A DNA stretch of 64,000 nucleotides from Patescibacteria group bacterium (GCA_018826905.1 JAHJYC010000004.1:141717-205716), one strand, 5' to 3'; positions 6,520-62,820 are shown, counted from the stretch's first letter. Numbers and translations: made by a program. Notes: generated by a model not told the origin, from the letters alone.

Positions 6520-6868
6520 CACGAATGGATACCGGTCCGATAAGCCGAATTCTGTCCCTTCAAAGAAGAGGACGGTCATCTATCTGGGAGTGTTGTTACC
6601 AACACCCTCAAGCGGCGCTCCCGCACGAGGACGGGCACGGCCTTGCACAGGGGTAAGGATTTAGCCGTTTCAGCTTGAAGTCACCTTCAGGACACTCTTA
6701 GAAAGAGTCTCTATCCTTTCGGAATTGAGCGTTTCTGTTCGCACCTCGCGCCTTTCGGCGGACGGGCGTTACCCGCTACCTGTCTGCAGCGAACTGCCTG
6801 TGTTCGGACTTTCCTCTCTACAATACAAGTATCATAGAGCGACCGTCTGGGCCGGTCCATATATATTA
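6520..6868 (-). ncRNA. rnpB: RNase P RNA (bacterial M1-like RNA).
   Basis: The minus-strand sequence carries the universally conserved P4 and neighbouring elements. These are GAGGAAAGUCCGAACAC (E. coli GAGGAAAGUCCGGGCUCC), GGUAACGCC in the P10/11 region, and the 3'-proximal GACAGAAUUCGGCUUAUCGGACCGG (E. coli GACAGAACCCGGCUUAUCGGUCAG). The 5' segment CCCAGACGGUCGC aligns with E. coli CCAGACAGUCGC, and the P1 ends can pair. The region contains no credible ORF. Confidence 0.75.
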
Positions 6869-18730: not shown

Positions 18731-19411
18731 TTATTTTGCCTTAGGCCATCGCAGTGCTGCCTTAGGCCATAGCTTCGTTAAAGGATGCTCCTCACACGCA
18801 TGAGGGAGCGCAGGACATACATAGCGGCCGTACAGAACAAGTCCATTATTTACGTACTTCCAGTCTTTCTTCGGAATGAGTACCTCTAGGTCCTTAGATA
18901 TCTTAGTGAGTTCTGTATTATCCGTAAGATCAAAACGAAGAGCGAATCTACGTACATGGGTGTCTGTGGGAATACCTTCCCAAACACTAAACAGCTCCCC
19001 CAGCACTACATGTGCAGTTTTATATGCAACACCTGGCAAGAGAATTAACTCCCTTTCTGTCTGCGGTACCTCACCATTAAATTGATCGCGTATCATTTGC
19101 GCCGCAGAGACGATGTAGCGTGCCTTGGACTGATGATACGTTATGGACGAGGTTTCATTTGAAAAGACCGCGACAGACGCAGTAGCGAAATCATCAACTG
19201 TCTTGTACTTTTTCCAAAGCGTCTCTGTAACGGCATTTACTTTCTTATCTGTACACTGCGCTGACAATATAACTGCAGCTACAAATTGAAATGGAGTATC
19301 GTACGCAAGTTCACTCTTAGGCTCTGGGTACGAACGCCTTAGATAGCGAACTATCTCCTGTGCTCTCTTCTTTCGTTCTTCTTTGTGTACGTCTCTGAAA
19401 AGTTCATCCAT
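18731..19411 (-). CDS. Endonuclease III-like HhH-GPD DNA glycosylase with a degenerate Fe-S site.
   Basis: FQFVAAVILSAQCTDKKVNAV...LPGVAYKTAHVVL...PTDTHVRRFALRF matches the Nth pattern. The C-terminal region has only two Cys (VCPALPHAC) instead of the four Fe-S ligands. Confidence 0.6.
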   Translation of the reverse strand: MDELFRDVHKEERKKRAQEIVRYLRRSYPEPKSELAYDTPFQFVAAVILSAQCTDKKVNAVTETLWKKYKTVDDFATASVAVFSNETSSITYHQSKARYIVSAAQMIRDQFNGEVPQTERELILLPGVAYKTAHVVLGELFSVWEGIPTDTHVRRFALRFDLTDNTELTKISKDLEVLIPKKDWKYVNNGLVLYGRYVCPALPHACEEHPLTKLWPKAALRWPKAK

Positions 19412-19871
19412 GCACTACATCTTGAAGTACTTCTGCTGCGTGTTCCTCGGGACGCACATTTTCATATATCTTCTCTACGTATCCTTCAGGATTTATAAGA
19501 AATGAAGTACGAAATACTCCGTCATACTCTCGTCCCATAAACTTCTTCTTTCCCCACACGTCGTAGGTAGAAATAACGTCCTTCTCAGGGTCTGCGAGTA
19601 GCGTAAATGGAAGTGAGTACTTTAGAGCAAACTTTTTATGGCTTTCTACAGAATCGGGAGAGATCCCGAGGACAACCATTTTGCTCTTAGCAAACGAAGG
19701 GAATGCATCTCGTATAGAGCACGCCTCCTTGGTACATCCTGGCGTATCGTCCTTAGGATAGAAGTAGATGAGCACAGGTGATCCACGATACGAAGAAAGT
19801 GTGTGCGGCGCTCCGTCTTGATCAAGGAGGGTAAAATCTGGAGCGAGAGAGCCAACTGAGGGATGTGCCAT
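19404..19871 (-). CDS. bcp: Peroxiredoxin of Bcp/PrxQ type (thiol peroxidase, thioredoxin fold).
   Basis: 155 aa with the PKDDTPGCTKE peroxidatic Cys motif and APDFTLLDQDG. Confidence 0.85.
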   Translation of the reverse strand: MAHPSVGSLAPDFTLLDQDGAPHTLSSYRGSPVLIYFYPKDDTPGCTKEACSIRDAFPSFAKSKMVVLGISPDSVESHKKFALKYSLPFTLLADPEKDVISTYDVWGKKKFMGREYDGVFRTSFLINPEGYVEKIYENVRPEEHAAEVLQDVVHG

Positions 19872-21071: not shown

Positions 21072-21500
21072 TCAAGAACTTCCCTTTCTCAAGGAGTACA
21101 CAATGCCCCAAGACACCACTGCAATGGCAGCAGAGGCAAGACAGTAGACACAAATTGCTTTAATAAGAAATAGTTGTATAGCAACAAACACTGCTGAGGC
21201 TCCCACTCCTCCTATTGCAAGAAGGTGTAGTAGATTCCATATGATCTTCTGTTGAAAGAAGACCCATATTCCAGCAAGTATAAAAAACACCATGTAGAAC
21301 AAGACACCGTACAGTGCAAGTGGTATTCCAAACAATTGAGAGTATGGACTCTGAGCAACAATGTTGCATCCGTCTAACACTCCACCAATTTCACACGTAA
21401 GAGCGGTGTCTGTAACTGCACTTTGGTAGAGATACCAAGAGTCAGCAATACCTGCAAGAAGGAGTATAAAGAGAAACACTACAAGGATAGTGCGGTGCAT
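21072..21500 (-). CDS. Vitamin K epoxide reductase (VKOR) family protein, a DsbB analogue.
   Basis: 142 aa with 4 TM helices, a loop Cys pair (CEIGGVLDGC) and an active-site CVYC within a TM helix. Confidence 0.7.
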   Translation of the reverse strand: MHRTILVVFLFILLLAGIADSWYLYQSAVTDTALTCEIGGVLDGCNIVAQSPYSQLFGIPLALYGVLFYMVFFILAGIWVFFQQKIIWNLLHLLAIGGVGASAVFVAIQLFLIKAICVYCLASAAIAVVSWGIVYSLRKGSS

Positions 21501-23794: not shown

Positions 23795-24523
23795 CTACTT
23801 CAACTCGCTTTCAATAAGCGCCTTCACTGCGTCATACGGCTGTGCTCCAGAGAGAAGCGTTGTGCCGATGATAAGACTCGGAGTTCCATTAATACCGAGA
23901 GCTTGTCCTTCTGCACGGTCTGCTGCAATTGCAGCCTCATACTCAGAACGCTTATCAGTAATGAGCTTAAGAACACGATCAGTATCAATTCCAGGAATAG
24001 TACGGGTCAATGCTTCAATGCTTGCAAAGTCGCCGAATCCACCAAACTCTTCGTCCTGACTTTCAGCCATAGCACGGAACCAATCATAGAAGCGATCAGG
24101 ATGTGCGTCCCATACCGCACGTCCAAAGATTGCTGCGCTCATTGAATCCTCATTGCGCTCCGGATTCTTTGAGTACTCATCAAGGAACTGGAAGTCCTTG
24201 AATACAATCTTTACCTTCCCGTTCTTCACATAATTCTCGTACACTTCTGCTGTAGTGGTGAGCTCAAACTGTTTGCAGAACGGGCACTGGTAGTCGTACC
24301 ACACTGCCATAACAACAGGAGCATTCTTCTCACCAACATATGGGCTTGAATCAGTGTCCACATCTTTAATGTCTACAGCCATAGCCTGTCCGTCCTGAGG
24401 AGTGTTCTTAGATCCGCCCTGTCCGAAGGCAACAGCGACAGCAATAATCACACAGCCCAAAACAACAGCGATAGGCGTCAGATATTTCTCCATAAATCCT
24501 CCTCCCTGTGCGTTCGTTTCCAT
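23795..24523 (-). CDS. DsbA-family thiol:disulfide oxidoreductase (thioredoxin fold), membrane anchored or secreted.
   Basis: An N-terminal TM/signal sequence, a CPFC active site (WYDYQCPFCKQF), and a C-terminal DsbA-like helical insert. Confidence 0.7.
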   Translation of the reverse strand: METNAQGGGFMEKYLTPIAVVLGCVIIAVAVAFGQGGSKNTPQDGQAMAVDIKDVDTDSSPYVGEKNAPVVMAVWYDYQCPFCKQFELTTTAEVYENYVKNGKVKIVFKDFQFLDEYSKNPERNEDSMSAAIFGRAVWDAHPDRFYDWFRAMAESQDEEFGGFGDFASIEALTRTIPGIDTDRVLKLITDKRSEYEAAIAADRAEGQALGINGTPSLIIGTTLLSGAQPYDAVKALIESELK

Positions 24524-47830: not shown

Positions 47831-49624
47831 TTACGCAGACTGGTCAAAAAGGTGTAGGTACTGCTCGTACCCTTCTTTTACCATTTCTTCTTTTGGAATG
47901 AACTTGAGAGACGCAGAGTTGGTGCAGAAACGACGGCCACCCTCCTCAGCGGGTCCGTCGTTAAAAACATGACCAACATGTCCCGCCTCACTTCGTATTT
48001 CTGTTCGGGTAGTAGAGAGTGAATTGTCCTCGTGCATCGTCACTGAATTATCATCAATCGTTCTCCAAAAGCTTGGCCAGCCTGTTCCTGAGTCATATTT
48101 GTGTGTACTTGAGAAAAGCGGTTTTCCTGTAACCACGTCCACATAGATGCCATCAGCCTTATTATCCCAATATGCATTGTTGAAGGGCGACTCGGTGCCA
48201 TTCTCAGCAACAACGTGGTACGCCAGCGGATCTAAGTTCTTTAGCAGTTTCGCAATTTCTTCGTCTGTATAGTTGTACGCATCATTTGTATCCATAGAGG
48301 TTGTTTGTTTAGATTCTAAAAATTGGATTGCTGCATCTTTTGCCCAGGTCTCTTCAACGAATCCTGCCCTGCCAGATGCTTTCTTATAGCGCTCGTAATG
48401 ATCTGCTGCTTTTTTGTAATAGTCCTGATGATACTCCTCTGCTTTGTAGAAGCTTGCGAACGGGAGTACTTCTGTCGCAATCAGCGCATCAAACACGCCA
48501 CTTGCTTCAAGACGCTCCTTAGAATCGCGCGCTATCCTTTTCTGTTCATCATTCTGATAATAAATGGCTGTCGTGTACTGGAACCCTGTATCAGCAAACT
48601 GGCCCTGCTCATTTGTTGGATCAATGTGCGACCAATAGATATCTAGTACCTCTTCTGTTGAAAGTATCTTTGGGTCATAGGTTATCTGTACTGCTTCCCT
48701 ATGGTTAGTTGTGCCCTTTGAAACAAGAAGGTACGACGCCTCTGATTCATCTCCTCCTGCATATCCTGAGACTGCATCAATGATCCCTTCTTCTTCCTGG
48801 AAGTACGCTTCGGTGCACCAGAAGCATCCACCTGCTAGGGTGATTGTCTCGTACTCTCCATTTAGCATAGCGCTCTCCTCTACAGAACTCTCTGGAGCGA
48901 ATCGCTCAATAAGAGCATTCTCAAACTGAATCGTTGCTCCGTAGCCTGAATCTAGAATGAATGTCTCAATCTTTTTGTCGTACCCGGTAAGTATGGCAAT
49001 ACCAACAAGAACAATCAGTACACCAAATACCTGCTTCACTCTCCCGGCAGTTTGCAGGTGTCCCAGTGCTTTGTTGATGAGCTGTTGCCCGAAGTACGCA
49101 ATGAGCAAAAGCGACACCGAAAGACCAAGGACAAACCCGAAGAGGTATGTAACTCCCTCTGCGAACGTTGCCGGCAAGACAGTTGCAATAATGAAGAGAT
49201 AGGTCGGCGAGCAGGTCGTAAAGACTGGCCCGAGCGCAGCCCCAATTGCGATGTCTCCCGCATAGCTTTTCTTCTGATAACCCGTACCCACGAGCTTATT
49301 ACTTGCAAGACTAAGTCTGTTTACGAGTGGAACCCTCGCCCACAAGGACGGGAACACTATGGCAAGACCAACAAGAATAAGAACCGCTCCAGAAAACCAG
49401 CTCCAGAACACTTGAGGAATATCAATAAGCAGTGTTGATGCTTTCAGCAAAAGCGTGAAGACGATGACTGAGACCGATAGCGATCCGACAACAACGAGAG
49501 CTCGTCTTGAGATATATCTTCCACCAGTTTCTGAGGCTCCAATAACTACCGGGAGAAGCGGAAGTATGCAGGGAGCTAGAACCGTGAATATTCCTGCCAG
49601 AACTGATATTCCAAAGAAAATCAT
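47831..49624 (-). CDS. msrAB: Triple fusion of a CcdA/DsbD-like thiol-disulfide transporter membrane domain, peptide methionine-S-sulfoxide reductase MsrA, and methionine-R-sulfoxide reductase MsrB.
   Basis: The N-terminal ~230 aa have 6 TM helices with the CcdA cysteines (LAPCILP, TTCSPTY). The middle region carries GGCFWCTEA (the MsrA GCFWC motif). The C-terminal region carries GTGWPSFW...RTEIRSEAGHVGHVFNDGP (MsrB SelR motifs). Confidence 0.8.
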   Translation of the reverse strand: MIFFGISVLAGIFTVLAPCILPLLPVVIGASETGGRYISRRALVVVGSLSVSVIVFTLLLKASTLLIDIPQVFWSWFSGAVLILVGLAIVFPSLWARVPLVNRLSLASNKLVGTGYQKKSYAGDIAIGAALGPVFTTCSPTYLFIIATVLPATFAEGVTYLFGFVLGLSVSLLLIAYFGQQLINKALGHLQTAGRVKQVFGVLIVLVGIAILTGYDKKIETFILDSGYGATIQFENALIERFAPESSVEESAMLNGEYETITLAGGCFWCTEAYFQEEEGIIDAVSGYAGGDESEASYLLVSKGTTNHREAVQITYDPKILSTEEVLDIYWSHIDPTNEQGQFADTGFQYTTAIYYQNDEQKRIARDSKERLEASGVFDALIATEVLPFASFYKAEEYHQDYYKKAADHYERYKKASGRAGFVEETWAKDAAIQFLESKQTTSMDTNDAYNYTDEEIAKLLKNLDPLAYHVVAENGTESPFNNAYWDNKADGIYVDVVTGKPLFSSTHKYDSGTGWPSFWRTIDDNSVTMHEDNSLSTTRTEIRSEAGHVGHVFNDGPAEEGGRRFCTNSASLKFIPKEEMVKEGYEQYLHLFDQSA

Positions 49625-49626
49625 TC

Positions 49627-50112
49627 CTACTGAATACTACCTACAAGACCTGTGAGCGTAGGGCTACCACTCCACTTCTTAATCAGATTGCCTTCAGCAT
49701 CTACCTGAACAAGTGTGTGCTGAGTTGTTACTCCATATTTCTTCTTAAGCTCTGTCTCTGTATCATAATCAAGCTTTAAGATACTCACGTTTGCAGGTAT
49801 TGCCTCTAGATTGTTCTCAATGTCCGCATTAAGTCCTCTACATGAAGGACACCACGTTGCATGAAAGAAGAGGACAACATCTCCCTCTTTAGCTCGTGCT
49901 AGCTTTTCAGGAGCGTATGCTTCGTATAACCCAGTCTTCATCATGTCCTCTCCTTTTTCCATTCCCTCCTCCGTCGACATATCCTTCTCACCTGTCTGAC
50001 TCGTTTCATCTTTCACGCTCACATCAGCACTCTTGTTCATAGATGCGTATGCAAATCCAGCAATCGCAATGAGCGCGACAACTGCAATGCTAATCCCTGC
50101 GGTTTTATTCAT
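49627..50112 (-). CDS. Membrane-anchored thioredoxin-like protein (TlpA/ResA-like), the likely reductant partner of the Msr fusion.
   Basis: An N-terminal TM helix and a WCPSC active site (FFHATWCPSCRGL). It sits 3 nt upstream of the CcdA-MsrAB gene on the same strand. Confidence 0.75.
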   Translation of the reverse strand: MNKTAGISIAVVALIAIAGFAYASMNKSADVSVKDETSQTGEKDMSTEEGMEKGEDMMKTGLYEAYAPEKLARAKEGDVVLFFHATWCPSCRGLNADIENNLEAIPANVSILKLDYDTETELKKKYGVTTQHTLVQVDAEGNLIKKWSGSPTLTGLVGSIQ

Positions 50113-50133: not shown

Positions 50134-50159
50134 CTTACTATGTAACTAATTGTAGTAAG
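50134..50159. repeat. Inverted repeat CTTACTA-N12-TAGTAAG in the thioredoxin upstream region.
   Basis: Seen directly in the sequence: 7-bp arms located about 20-45 nt upstream of the trx start on the minus strand. Confidence 0.35.
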
Positions 50160-50201
50160 CACTGAGCCAGATGTAAAGTGTACTTTACATCTGGCTCAGT
50201 G
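50160..50201. repeat. 42-nt near-perfect palindrome CACTGAGCCAGATGTAAAGT-gt-ACTTTACATCTGGCTCAGTG.
   Basis: 20-bp perfect arms. It lies between the XRE/membrane-protein operon stop and the trx-msrAB operon start, and no U tract follows in either orientation. Confidence 0.6.
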
Positions 50202-50215
50202 GATAACGAACGGTT

Positions 50216-50578
50216 CTACAGATACTTGTCGCTCCAGATACGGGTTCCGATCTTAACCAAGATCATTGCAATGAGTGCAATAACGAGCCATGGATCTACA
50301 GTGTGTGTGTACCCCTGCACAACAATGCCCAATGTCAGAACTCCTGAACCGACTAAGAACGCATTCCTCCCCGCTAGAGTACGGTGCAACCCGTCGCGTT
50401 CATCCTCTACTTTCTCTCTCAGAATAAAGCTTGAAAATACTCCAAAGAGCCCCAGGGTGACTGCGAGCATACAGATTACGATCATGTCTGGCATCCAGAA
50501 ATGGAAAGGATTGAGAAGCAGGATTGCGAGCGCAACCAGACATAGTGTGACGATGGTTTCTATAAGATTATTTTTCAT
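50216..50578 (-). CDS. Small polytopic membrane protein (DUF2975-like) that is typically paired with a YozG-type HTH regulator.
   Basis: 120 aa with 4 TM helices. It overlaps the upstream XRE gene by 11 nt. Confidence 0.45.
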   Translation of the reverse strand: MKNNLIETIVTLCLVALAILLLNPFHFWMPDMIVICMLAVTLGLFGVFSSFILREKVEDERDGLHRTLAGRNAFLVGSGVLTLGIVVQGYTHTVDPWLVIALIAMILVKIGTRIWSDKYL

Positions 50579-50780
50579 ATGAAATTCTGAATAGCTTCTC
50601 CACAGGCATTTTGAAGAAACCTGCTATTTTCAAGGCCAGTAAAATTGATGGTGTGTAGTTCCCCTTTTCTAAAGCAATAATAGTCTGCCGACTCACATTC
50701 ACTTTTGCGGCAAGCTCTTCCTGCGTCACATTCATCTGTGTTCTATAGGTACTCACTTCATTCTCTATCGTTCCTTGCAT
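50568..50780 (-). CDS. XRE-family (Cro/C1-type) helix-turn-helix transcriptional regulator, YozG-like.
   Basis: 70 aa. MNVTQEELAAKVNVSRQTIIALEKGNYTPSILLALKIA is a classic HTH_XRE. Confidence 0.75.
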   Translation of the reverse strand: MQGTIENEVSTYRTQMNVTQEELAAKVNVSRQTIIALEKGNYTPSILLALKIAGFFKMPVEKLFRISYEK

Positions 50781-50856
50781 GCGTTATGCAGTATAGTTGA
50801 GCGCAGAGCATCAGTAAAGCTAACTTTACATGCTAGAAGCAGTTTGGTTGGTGCCC

Positions 50857-55005: not shown

Positions 55006-55290
55006 ACGTAGTTCCTTTAAGGCGAGTAAGCCTAGAAGCGGAATTGTGCGGGTAGCACAAAACCCGCCACCAGGAGCCCGAAGGCCTATAGAAGTTTCCC
55101 TCTATAACGTAGGACACGCCCTGATGACGGGTTTTCTATGTCCTACGATTTTCGACCATGCTCGGGATTCCTCCGCAGGTTTAGGTCATTCTTATTCAGT
55201 TGTTGCCCAGGCTTAGCGCCGTACTAGAACATTAGCGTACAAACGAGAAAGTGTGTAGGTCAGAGCCATAAGCGAGTATAATTTGACTCA

Positions 55291-61517: not shown

Positions 61518-61600
61518 AGAACTAATGCATTAAAGGAATATACCAATAAGTATACCGCTTCTAGACTGCATGCTATGATTCTCCTGTACAACCGAATACG

Positions 61601-61750
61601 CAGTATCAAGAGTGCGGCGAGGGACCTGGCCCTTTGACCCGTCGGCAACCATTCCTAAAGGAAACGGTGCCCCCAGACCCCAACGCGGGAACGATGCCTC
61701 TGTAACGAAACATCTCCCGTAGTGGGAGATGTTTCGTTTCGTACCTTTAT
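61601..61750 (+). promoter_or_regulatory. SAM-I (S-box) riboswitch with an intrinsic terminator expression platform, sitting in the metK leader.
   Basis: Conserved core AUCAAGAGUGCGGCGAGGGACCUGGCCCUUUGACCCGUCGGCAACC ... GGUGCC ... P1 closing GUAUC/GAUGC. This is followed by the hairpin GAAACAUCUCCC-GUAG-UGGGAGAUGUUUC plus a U-rich tract, 17 nt before the metK ATG. Confidence 0.8.
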
Positions 61751-61767: not shown

Positions 61768-62820
61768 ATGTTTCATCTTCTTACGCATTACACGACCGAG
61801 AGCGTTACTGCAGGACACCCAGACAAAGTCTGCGACCAAATATCAGACGCCATCCTAGATGCCTGCCTCACCCAAGACCCAAATAGCCGTGTTGCTGTTG
61901 AAACCTTTGGGAGCCACGGCACACTCATGATTGGCGGCGAGGTTACCACAACAGCCTCTGTAGATTACGAAGCAATCGCACGCGAAGTGTATGCCTCTAT
62001 TGGCTACACAGAAGACCTAGAGGTGCTCTCACGCGTTGTAACGCAGTCCGGAGACATTGCTATGGGAGTAGACACAGGAGGCGCCGGAGACCAGGGAATT
62101 ATGTACGGCTACGCAACGAACGAGACTGATCAGTATCTTCCGTTAGGTGTTGTGCTCGCCCACGGACTCGCACGAAAACTAGAGGAGCTTCGCACGAGCG
62201 GGACACTCCCCTACCTGCGTCCAGACGGAAAGACTCAGGTAACCATAAAGAATGGAGAAGTAATCACCGGCCTCACTTCAACCCAACACACTGAAGAGAC
62301 TGAACTTGAAACAATCCGTGAGGATCTAACCAAGCACCTCTTCACACCAATCCTCGGAGACCTAAGTAACATAGAAATCCTCGTAAACCCAACAGGACGT
62401 TTCGTACAAGGCGGGTTTGAGGCAGACGCAGGTCTTACCGGTCGCAAGATAATGGTAGACACCTATGGAGGACTTATGCCACACGGCGGGGGCTGCTTCT
62501 CAGGAAAAGATGCAACAAAAGTAGACCGCTCTGCAGCCTATATGTGTCGCTTTGTAGCAAAGAACCTTGTTGCAAACGGACACGCAAAGAAAGCACTCGT
62601 CTCAGTTGCCTACGCTATTGGCCGTGTTGACCCAGTTATGGTTGAAGCATTTGATGAGAACGGAAAGAATCTCTCAGAGATTGTGAACACACACTTTGAC
62701 TTCCGTCCTCTTATGATTCGCGAGCGACTTGGACTCACCCGTCCTATATTCCGCGAGACTGCCGCATACGGACACTTCGGAGTTCAGGGCCGTCCCTGGG
62801 AAGAAATTATCTCTCTTTAG
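61768..62820 (+). CDS. metK: S-adenosylmethionine synthetase (methionine adenosyltransferase).
   Basis: The signature ESVTAGHPDKVCDQISDAILDA, GGGAFSGKD-like GGGCFSGKDATKVDRSAAY, and C-terminal AYGHFG. At 350 aa it is somewhat shorter than E. coli MetK. Confidence 0.92.
   Translation: MFHLLTHYTTESVTAGHPDKVCDQISDAILDACLTQDPNSRVAVETFGSHGTLMIGGEVTTTASVDYEAIAREVYASIGYTEDLEVLSRVVTQSGDIAMGVDTGGAGDQGIMYGYATNETDQYLPLGVVLAHGLARKLEELRTSGTLPYLRPDGKTQVTIKNGEVITGLTSTQHTEETELETIREDLTKHLFTPILGDLSNIEILVNPTGRFVQGGFEADAGLTGRKIMVDTYGGLMPHGGGCFSGKDATKVDRSAAYMCRFVAKNLVANGHAKKALVSVAYAIGRVDPVMVEAFDENGKNLSEIVNTHFDFRPLMIRERLGLTRPIFRETAAYGHFGVQGRPWEEIISL

Follow-up and report, generated by a model that had tools for sequence, protein, structure and literature searches.

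A predicted CcdA-MsrA-MsrB fusion protein with a thioredoxin partner and a candidate regulator pair in Patescibacteria

We wanted to know whether the operon at positions 47831-50112 of a 64,000-nucleotide stretch of DNA from a Patescibacteria group bacterium (GCA_018826905.1 JAHJYC010000004.1:141717-205716; the whole stretch is called the window below) encodes a complete system for the repair of methionine sulfoxide outside the cytoplasm, in which a CcdA-type membrane electron transporter and the methionine sulfoxide reductases (Msr) MsrA and MsrB form one polypeptide served by a thioredoxin (Trx) encoded next to it. A first-pass annotation, made from the sequence alone, had proposed such a self-contained module, and the domains, the topology pattern and the gene linkage described here all agree with it. 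Both open reading frames (ORFs) lie on the minus strand where that annotation had placed them (Table 1), although the trx stop codon and the ATG of the fusion gene are separated by 2 nt and not by 3 nt as it had stated. Overall, we think it probable that the locus specifies a membrane-tethered extracytoplasmic Msr system of a Patescibacteria (Paceibacteria/Minisyncoccia-type) bacterium.

The N-terminal part of the fusion protein scores above the Pfam cut-offs for DsbD_TM (PF02683; residues 6-212, 30.2 bits against 27.1) and DsbD_2 (PF13386; 27.4 bits against 24.9), and a phmmer search aligned residues 7-224 with the solved Thermus CcdA structure 5VKV (E=4e-5), which together bear out the CcdA-like character that had been assigned to this domain. 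Further along the protein, Pfam detects PMSR (PF01625) at residues 260-411 with 192 bits and SelR (PF01641) at residues 464-577 with 143 bits, the NCBIfam models for MsrA (TIGR00401; 173.5 bits, cut-off 108.1) and MsrB (TIGR00357; 169 bits, cut-off 113) are exceeded, and the Msr part matches the solved MsrAB fusions 7E43, 5FA9 and 3E0M (H. pylori, T. denticola and S. pneumoniae). The PilB-type equivalog NF010625 gave 313 bits against a cut-off of 522 and was matched at model positions 187-517 only, indicating that the Trx part of the PilB-type model is absent from the fusion. As the first-pass annotation had described, the motifs LAPCILP (Cys19), TTCSPTY (Cys138), GCFWC (Cys267/Cys270) and GHVGHVFNDGP are all present. 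Cys19 lies in the first transmembrane (TM) segment, TM1, within APCILPLLP, and Cys138 in TM4 within TTCSPTY, each with a proline beside it, and all five cysteines of the fusion are invariant in 40 relatives as well as in fusions of 52% and 42% identity. The CxxC that had been claimed for MsrB was not found: this domain has no CxxC pairs and no cysteine other than Cys567, and the position of the resolving cysteine (GTGWPSF) is occupied by an invariant Thr514. The GCGWPSF cysteine and the two CxxC pairs of the 2-Cys, Zn-binding MsrB subclass are thus missing, and we conclude that this MsrB is of the 1-Cys, Zn-less type. Between the CcdA and MsrA domains, a segment of about 30 residues that follows TM6 is kept in every CcdA variant of the clade, stand-alone CcdA included, and may provide a docking surface for Trx.

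A single ORF of this kind could be an artefact of assembly or a frameshift that merged separate ccdA and msrAB genes, and the related locus L055, with the unfused order trx, ccdA (DipZ-like), msrA and msrB, demonstrates that the genes can be separate. For the locus studied here we find this scarcely credible. The identical protein is also recorded in GCA_018826595.1 (Patescibacteria group bacterium) and is found on 9 contigs in total, from independent assemblies; at least 120 clusters (defined at 90% identity) share the fusion in one continuous frame with 75-82% identity over 97-100% of its length, as do relatives of 42-52% identity; and both Msr motifs are in frame with CcdA in 42 of 70 complete metagenome ORFs. 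The single polypeptide of the first-pass annotation therefore stands. Almost all of the clusters carry the same three Pfam domains, and those with names all belong to Patescibacteria or Paceibacterota. Among representatives at 50% identity, two are full-length fusions (P0122, 52% identical, and P0125, 42%), of which P0125, from locus L086, requires genetic code 25, in which UGA is a sense codon, for an uninterrupted frame, as does its upstream Trx; the CcdA-MsrAB architecture thus reaches a recoded lineage. A scan of GTDB genomes, which was keyed on generic MsrA motifs and is hence a weak guide to taxonomic range, added at least two full-length fusions (L006 and L007). Public annotation calls these proteins simply ‘MsrA’. 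In the literature searched there was no description of a CcdA-MsrAB fusion protein, the one match to ‘ccdA-msrAB’ being a dicistronic operon, and the table of MsrAB fusion types in a 2026 review lists Trx-MsrAB, MsrAB and TM-MsrAB2 only. The fusion had been called unusual, which is apt for the published literature but not within Patescibacteria, where it is common. The packaging, i.e. CcdA joined to MsrAB, is new; the chemistry is predictable.

Hydropathy places six TM segments in the CcdA domain, with 3/0/5/0/3 Lys and Arg residues in successive loops; this pattern sets both termini opposite the K/R-rich loops, i.e. outside the cell, and the MsrAB domains are accordingly predicted to be extracytoplasmic, in line with the first-pass annotation. 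In stand-alone CcdA, too, both termini are outside. An AlphaFold2 (AF2) model from a 40-sequence alignment, which gives no inter-domain geometry and was used for the helix pattern only, has, at low confidence, six long helices, of which TM1 is interrupted at Cys19 and TM4 at Cys138. Alternatively, the Msr domains could be cytoplasmic and the CcdA-like region a mere anchor whose electron-transfer function has been lost, as might be read from the borderline DsbD_TM score and from the failure to detect the DsbD_TM profile in P0122 and P0125 at E<=0.001. We regard this alternative as very improbable: the two CcdA cysteines and the Pro-containing motifs around them show no variation even in the relative of 42% identity, the six TM segments and the positive-inside pattern set the C terminus on the N-terminal side of the membrane, opposite the K/R-rich loops, and the partner Trx begins with a segment for export or anchoring. 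Further, DsbD, an eight-TM relative that hands electrons to thioredoxin-like domains, bears periplasmic domains at both termini (PMC3322552).

The partner encoded by the 161-aa ORF scores 44.2 bits against Thioredoxin (PF00085; cut-off 23.5). The first-pass annotation had described a membrane-anchored WCPSC thioredoxin; the WCPSC motif (residues 87-91, with Cys88 and Cys91) and a hydrophobic N terminus (approximately residues 5-23), which would be either an anchor or a cleaved signal peptide, are indeed there. The TlpA/ResA/CcmG models are not reached (dsbE, 16.8 against a cut-off of 123; ResA, 17.6 against 170; StoA, 20.7 against 210); we expect this Trx to act like the TlpA/ResA/DsbE reductants without being a member of them by profile. 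That Trx is co-encoded with the fusion, as proposed, is well established. In 8/8 fusions from distinct genomic contexts, which take in the 52% and 42% relatives and one CcdA-MsrA-only variant, the fusion gene is preceded at 1-7 nt by a WCP[ST]C Trx ORF. Searching metagenomes with just the CcdA domain yielded 80 loci; all 66 of these with enough upstream sequence have such an ORF, which stops 0-27 nt before the CcdA gene. Further, Trx-like domains occur inside some fusions: P0127/P0276, from the clade of the window protein, has an internal Trx between CcdA and MsrAB, and P0177, from another CcdA clade, is a CcdA-TlpA-MsrA-MsrB fusion with no upstream trx.

We propose that electrons would travel from a cytoplasmic Trx to CcdA, then to the surface Trx and finally to MsrA and MsrB. 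The adjacent Trx gene in 66/66 loci is what supports the presumed transfer by CcdA from a cytoplasmic Trx to an extracytoplasmic Trx-like partner. The surface Trx would take electrons from CcdA through Cys88/Cys91 and would reduce the MsrA disulfide (Cys267-Cys270) and the MsrB sulfenate (Cys567), with both Msr domains hanging off the outward-facing C terminus of CcdA. The sulfenate of a 1-Cys MsrB needs a thiol-disulfide partner such as Trx, and from Msr chemistry in general we infer that the sulfenate formed here would need direct resolution by Trx. The benefit of the fusion would be that the enzymes are anchored in the membrane, in 1:1 proximity to their electron source, in a cell that we assume to have no outer membrane. 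In S. gordonii, CcdA was unable to reduce MsrAB, Trx-like lipoproteins were able to do so, and CcdA reduces those lipoproteins (PMC7034828); the CcdA-Etrx-MsrAB2 model for S. pneumoniae is consistent with the same relay (PMC3914529). The fixed Trx neighbour, the four-domain fusions and the S. gordonii biochemistry thus support the order CcdA, Trx, MsrA/MsrB, with the order and direction of electron flow and the enzyme activity themselves being what the homology implies.

A shorter route is conceivable, in which CcdA reduces the fused MsrA and MsrB directly in cis and the neighbouring Trx serves other surface clients. The fusion does bring the MsrA CxxC close to the outward face of CcdA, and the Trx-CcdA pairing persists when CcdA carries DUF3179 or nothing, implying that Trx is not Msr-specific. 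We nevertheless judge direct transfer to be improbable. The 1-Cys MsrB has the requirement for a partner noted above, and a Trx or TlpA domain sits exactly between CcdA and MsrAB in P0127 and P0177, the latter of which, with its internal TlpA, has no separate trx. Further, both purified S. gordonii CcdA proteins, CcdA1 and CcdA2, failed to reduce MsrAB where the Trx-like proteins succeeded (PMC7034828), and DsbD-family proteins pass electrons to thioredoxin-like domains (PMC3322552).

Across the collected loci, the Trx-CcdA pair is constant and the C terminus of CcdA varies. It is MsrA-MsrB in 42 loci, MsrA alone in 4 loci by motif (one of these ORFs has only 278 aa) and in P0121, and DUF3179 in about 12 loci, and in about 9 loci CcdA has no C-terminal partner (about 250 aa). 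Outside the Msr fusions, this CcdA domain is closest to DipZ-type (CcdA-Redoxin-Thioredoxin_10) and CcdA-DUF3179 proteins. The DUF3179 domain of the latter (L126, L127, L129, L130, L134-L137, L144, L145 and L147; P0137 and P0194) bears a CPLCGS motif and has the same upstream Trx, and these features suggest that DUF3179 may be an extracytoplasmic thiol-redox client. A CcdA-DUF1254/DUF1214 form occurs in 2 loci (L094 and L095); the point of fusion coincides exactly with the start of MsrA and there is an extra TM segment, and we rejected this form as a designed variant since it looks like the product of a recent rearrangement. In the unfused locus (L055:1968-5670), a DUF2178-like gene, trx, the DipZ-like CcdA-Redoxin-Thioredoxin_10 gene, msrA and msrB follow each other, and an export signal is not evident in either MsrA or MsrB. 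We also note a DM13-MsrA-MsrB fusion of 540 aa in Paceibacterota (P0154), in which DM13, a domain labelled ‘electron transfer’, may represent an alternative electron supply to surface Msr enzymes.

The Trx has a second distinguishing feature, a low-complexity tether between its anchor and its fold. In 54 distinct orthologs the tether contains 14.5% Met, 23% Asp and Glu and 14.5% Lys and Arg, compared with 0.9% Met in the Trx fold and 1.3% in the fusion proteins; charged residues make up 38% across orthologs, and Met reaches 32%. The Trx orthologs with such a tether are found in L004-L007, L087 and L093-L172. At least 10% Met is present in the tethers of 33 of 37 MsrAB-type cassettes (median 18%) versus 1 of 9 of the DUF3179 type. 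MrpX of Azospira suillum is an exported protein with 20% Met and 44% charged residues that scavenges hypochlorite as a sacrificial sink and is then recycled by an Msr in the periplasm (PMC4436054). By analogy with MrpX, which it resembles in composition, the tether is probably a local sacrificial oxidant sink that would be re-reduced by MsrAB. Composition and Msr linkage fit an MrpX-like element, with no profile match and with 4 Met per 30 residues in the tether of the window; none of the ORFs of at least 60 aa in the window exceeds 5 Met per 30-residue stretch. In L119 the tether has an insertion of about 130 residues, a folded-looking domain flanked by two Met-rich stretches. Elsewhere (Saccharibacteria, Syntrophobacter, Limnobacter and an unclassified bacterium), the gene immediately upstream of an exported MsrAB specifies a small exported protein with 11-18% Met (L026:1838-2263, L036:2480-2932, L053:2212-2682 and L068:1719-2015, the last with MxKDx repeats), and these neighbours look like MrpX-like pairings with a thiol-based MsrAB.

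The tether also bears on whether the system serves defence or nutrition. Surface MsrAB could turn free methionine sulfoxide (MetSO) into Met for uptake by an auxotrophic cell with a reduced genome: Patescibacteria genomes are small (one related complete genome has 721 kb), free MetSO is reducible by MsrA enzymes (PMC13488963), and such a role could coexist with repair. We consider a nutritional role unlikely, as none of the loci examined has a methionine transporter linked to the cassette, 42 of about 46 Msr-type loci keep MsrB, an enzyme that acts poorly on free MetSO, and the Met-rich tether and a stress-type regulatory layout suggest oxidant defence.

That layout extends the functional unit beyond the interval first annotated: it adds an upstream regulator pair and two operator copies, as well as the Met-rich Trx tether, and neither the tether nor the regulatory features have been noted before as far as we could find. 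The first gene of the pair encodes an HTH_3 protein (PF01381; 50.1 bits, Pfam cut-off 23) that is highly conserved among 42 distinct orthologs and is always accompanied by a DUF2178-like gene, the start of which overlaps the HTH_3 stop by 11 nt, the two genes being translationally coupled. DUF2178 (PF09946) is only a weak precomputed match, with no match at E<=0.001 in our own scan, and is not mentioned in the literature searched. The pair lies directly upstream of 28 of 29 MsrAB-type cassettes with enough upstream sequence versus 0 of 9 of the DUF3179 type. In the DUF2178-like protein, W28-M29-P30, in a short loop placed outside by hydropathy, and D59-E60-R61, in the central loop, are conserved at 95% or more, and we view this protein as a candidate for the regulator's partner or sensor at the membrane. 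In L086, a HisKA histidine kinase and a response regulator gene are found upstream instead of the HTH_3 pair.

A 20-bp palindrome, ATGTAAAGTnnACTTTACAT, occurs in two copies, each overlapping the -35 element of a promoter-like site, one before trx and the other before the HTH_3 gene; the -35 hexamer of trx-ccdA::msrAB is the 3' half-site of operator copy 1. The 18-bp form, TGTAAAG-N4-CTTTACA, has 63 exact matches in 513 kb of collected loci, 54 of them just upstream of trx and 9 about 650 nt further upstream, near the start of the HTH gene. Of the 43 distinct loci that show the full arrangement, 41 match site 1 exactly and 2 differ from it at one position; site 2 is matched with no more than 2 mismatches in 31 of 38 orthologous loci. 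By comparison, nothing closer than 3 mismatches was seen in 343 random windows of 110 nt. Within the 64-kb window, a search that allowed up to 2 mismatches found the palindrome at 50172-50189 and 50813-50830 and nowhere else. The palindrome occupies the same positions in L093-L172, L001, L004, L005, L007, L055 and L087. The DUF3179-type cassettes have neither the operator nor the regulator pair and mostly no Met-rich tether. The 20+20 inverted repeat around copy 1 might have been an intrinsic terminator for the pair that precedes it, but we rejected this reading: no T-run comes after the repeat, the half-site sequence and not just its pairing is conserved, and a second copy stands before the HTH gene. 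The presence of the same palindrome before the module and before the HTH_3/DUF2178-like pair suggests an autoregulated XRE-type repressor, for which a two-site layout is typical, and the HTH_3 protein is the candidate binder of the palindrome. The trx-ccdA::msrAB operon would then be transcribed from a promoter with its -35 element inside the conserved palindrome, and the repressor would control the module, possibly with input from a membrane protein.

Several observations weigh against the view that the locus encodes a regulated, membrane-tethered extracytoplasmic Msr system. Activity, topology and electron flow are read by homology from the sequence. The DsbD_TM score is only just over its cut-off, the AF2 model is poor (mean pLDDT 55, pTM 0.36, approximately 30 over MsrB), the N-terminal segment of Trx is either an anchor or a cleaved signal peptide, and the 64-kb window encodes no cytoplasmic Trx/TrxR donor. 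L004 and L006 have no adjacent regulator pair, and L006 also has no operator. With respect to the tether, that of the window, with 4 Met in about 30 residues, is at the modest end; L110 and L106 are MsrAB-type and Met-poor and L137 is DUF3179-type and Met-rich; 8 of the 9 DUF3179-type tethers are near-identical, which means that the association of Met-rich tethers with MsrAB is not phylogenetically independent; and an NCBIfam scan of the Met-rich tethers matched no curated family.

Table 1. Features of the trx-ccdA::msrAB locus and its upstream regulatory region, in window positions.
Feature	Position	Strand	Description
trx ORF	49627..50112	-	161 aa; Thioredoxin-family, predicted extracytoplasmic
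ccdA::msrA::msrB fusion ORF	47831..49624	-	single 597-aa polypeptide, CcdA + MsrA + MsrB
CcdA domain	48980..49624	-	residues 1-215, six TM helices, Cys19 in TM1, Cys138 in TM4
Conserved post-TM6 segment	48893..48979	-	residues 216-244, DKKIETxILDSGYGATI...FAP
MsrA domain	48392..48847	-	residues 260-411, GCFWC, catalytic Cys267, CxxC-type resolving Cys270
MsrB domain	47894..48235	-	residues 464-577, catalytic Cys567 (RFCTNS)
Met-rich charged Trx tether	49927..50040	-	approximately residues 25-62, acidic
HTH_3 regulator gene	50568..50780	-	70 aa, XRE-family, candidate palindrome binder
DUF2178-like gene	50216..50578	-	120 aa, four-TM membrane protein
Operator copy 1	50160..50201		core TGTAAAGTGTACTTTACA at 50172-50189, within a perfect 20+20 inverted repeat
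Operator copy 2	50813..50830		AGTAAAGCTAACTTTACA on the + strand, 1 mismatch to TGTAAAG-N4-CTTTACA
Promoter-like site, trx-ccdA::msrAB	50149..50177	-	TTTACA, 17 nt, TACAAT; 10/12 consensus matches
Promoter-like site, HTH_3/DUF2178-like pair	50790..50818	-	TTTACT, 17 nt, TATACT, 9 nt to ATG; consensus match

The closest parallel to the arrangement in Table 1 is found in streptococci, where a CcdA transporter (CcdA1/2), surface Trx-like proteins (Etrx1/2 in S. pneumoniae, SdbB and Sgo_1177 in S. gordonii) and a membrane-tethered MsrA-MsrB act in the same order (PMC3914529, PMC7034828). There, too, the genes are clustered and the envelope is of the Gram-positive type, and the streptococcal system defends against extracellular oxidative stress. 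In streptococci, however, the components are three separate polypeptides and MsrAB2 has its own single TM anchor, whereas here MsrAB is carried on the C terminus of CcdA. Further, the streptococcal Trx proteins are TlpA/ResA-type lipoproteins and the regulator is a two-component system, whereas here we find a Thioredoxin-family WCPSC fold with a TM or signal anchor and a Met-rich tether, a 1-Cys MsrB, and an XRE/DUF2178-like pair as the predicted regulator. The Fusobacterium nucleatum ccdA-trx-msrAB-modRS locus likewise clusters ccdA, trx and a fused msrAB with a dedicated linked regulator; that locus is oxidant-induced, its proteins are separate and its regulator is a two-component system (PMC9239216). 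Neisseria PilB (Trx-MsrA-MsrB) is also an extracytoplasmic MsrA-MsrB fed through a DsbD-family protein and a Trx domain, but there Trx is fused to MsrAB and DsbD is separate, whereas here the transporter is fused to MsrAB and Trx is separate. None of the streptococcal, Neisseria DsbD-PilB and Fusobacterium systems fuses CcdA to MsrAB. The M. tuberculosis DipZ-type proteins do pair CcdA with a C-terminal extracytoplasmic redox domain, and relatives with the DipZ architecture, which are among the nearest to this CcdA domain, are 44-51% identical to it, but the DipZ-type ectodomain is a Trx-like relay and the domain fused here is the terminal enzyme; PF17991 derives from the DipZ/Rv2874 ectodomain structure. 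Finally, in the MrpX-YedY(MsrP) system of Azospira suillum an exported, Met-rich charged polypeptide is encoded with an extracytoplasmic Msr, as here, but MrpX is free in the periplasm, is recycled by a molybdoenzyme and is under sigma/anti-sigma control, whereas here the tether is part of Trx and MsrAB is thiol-based (PMC4436054).

In streptococci, Neisseria, Haemophilus and Fusobacterium, the CcdA-Trx-MsrAB pathway at the cell surface is established as a determinant of virulence and stress. The predicted system described here is its most compact natural form to date, since one polypeptide comprises both the membrane electron transporter and the terminal enzymes. As a ‘Rosetta-stone’ fusion it gives independent support for the functional linkage of CcdA and Msr, and it offers a simple two-protein system in which the delivery of electrons across a membrane to Msr enzymes could be reconstituted. 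For Patescibacteria, which are uncultured, have reduced genomes and are often epibiotic, it indicates a conserved and apparently regulated investment in surface oxidative repair. The HTH_3/DUF2178-like pair gains a first functional context and a defined putative operator, and there are leads to a possible tethered MrpX-like sink and, through the same CcdA module, to a redox context for DUF3179. Tentatively, and with more doubt than confidence, we put these parts together as a complete autoregulated, membrane-tethered oxidant-scavenging cycle, in which the Trx tether would be a built-in sink re-reduced in place by the CcdA-fused MsrAB, the HTH_3 and DUF2178-like proteins would be a new sensor-repressor pair that de-represses both promoters through ATGTAAAGTnnACTTTACAT, and Trx-CcdA would be a plug-in platform in Patescibacteria. 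If so, the sensor pair would respond to oxidative stress outside the cytoplasm, with the conserved outward W-M-P motif perhaps involved in the sensing, and MsrAB, MsrA and DUF3179 would be the surface redox clients fused onto the platform.

Elsewhere in the window, the first-pass annotation had reported VKOR, DsbA and a Bcp peroxiredoxin, and all three genes were confirmed on the minus strand (Bcp-type peroxiredoxin, 19404-19871; VKOR, 21072-21500; DsbA-like, 23795-24523). With VKOR-DsbA and CcdA-Trx genes both present, the organism appears to have oxidative as well as reductive surface thiol pathways. A DUF924 gene 3' of the fusion was rejected as a member of the module, since it is not conserved in other contexts, and terminator-like hairpins (47856-47872 and others) lie inside coding sequence and were taken as chance matches. 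The Rfam scan found no family in or beside the operon. In other parts of the window it gave matches above the gathering score to RNase P RNA at 6525-6858 (minus strand), to LOOT RNA at 55075-55187 (minus strand) and to a SAM riboswitch at 61600-61700 (plus strand), the last upstream of a 350-aa ORF at 61768-62820.

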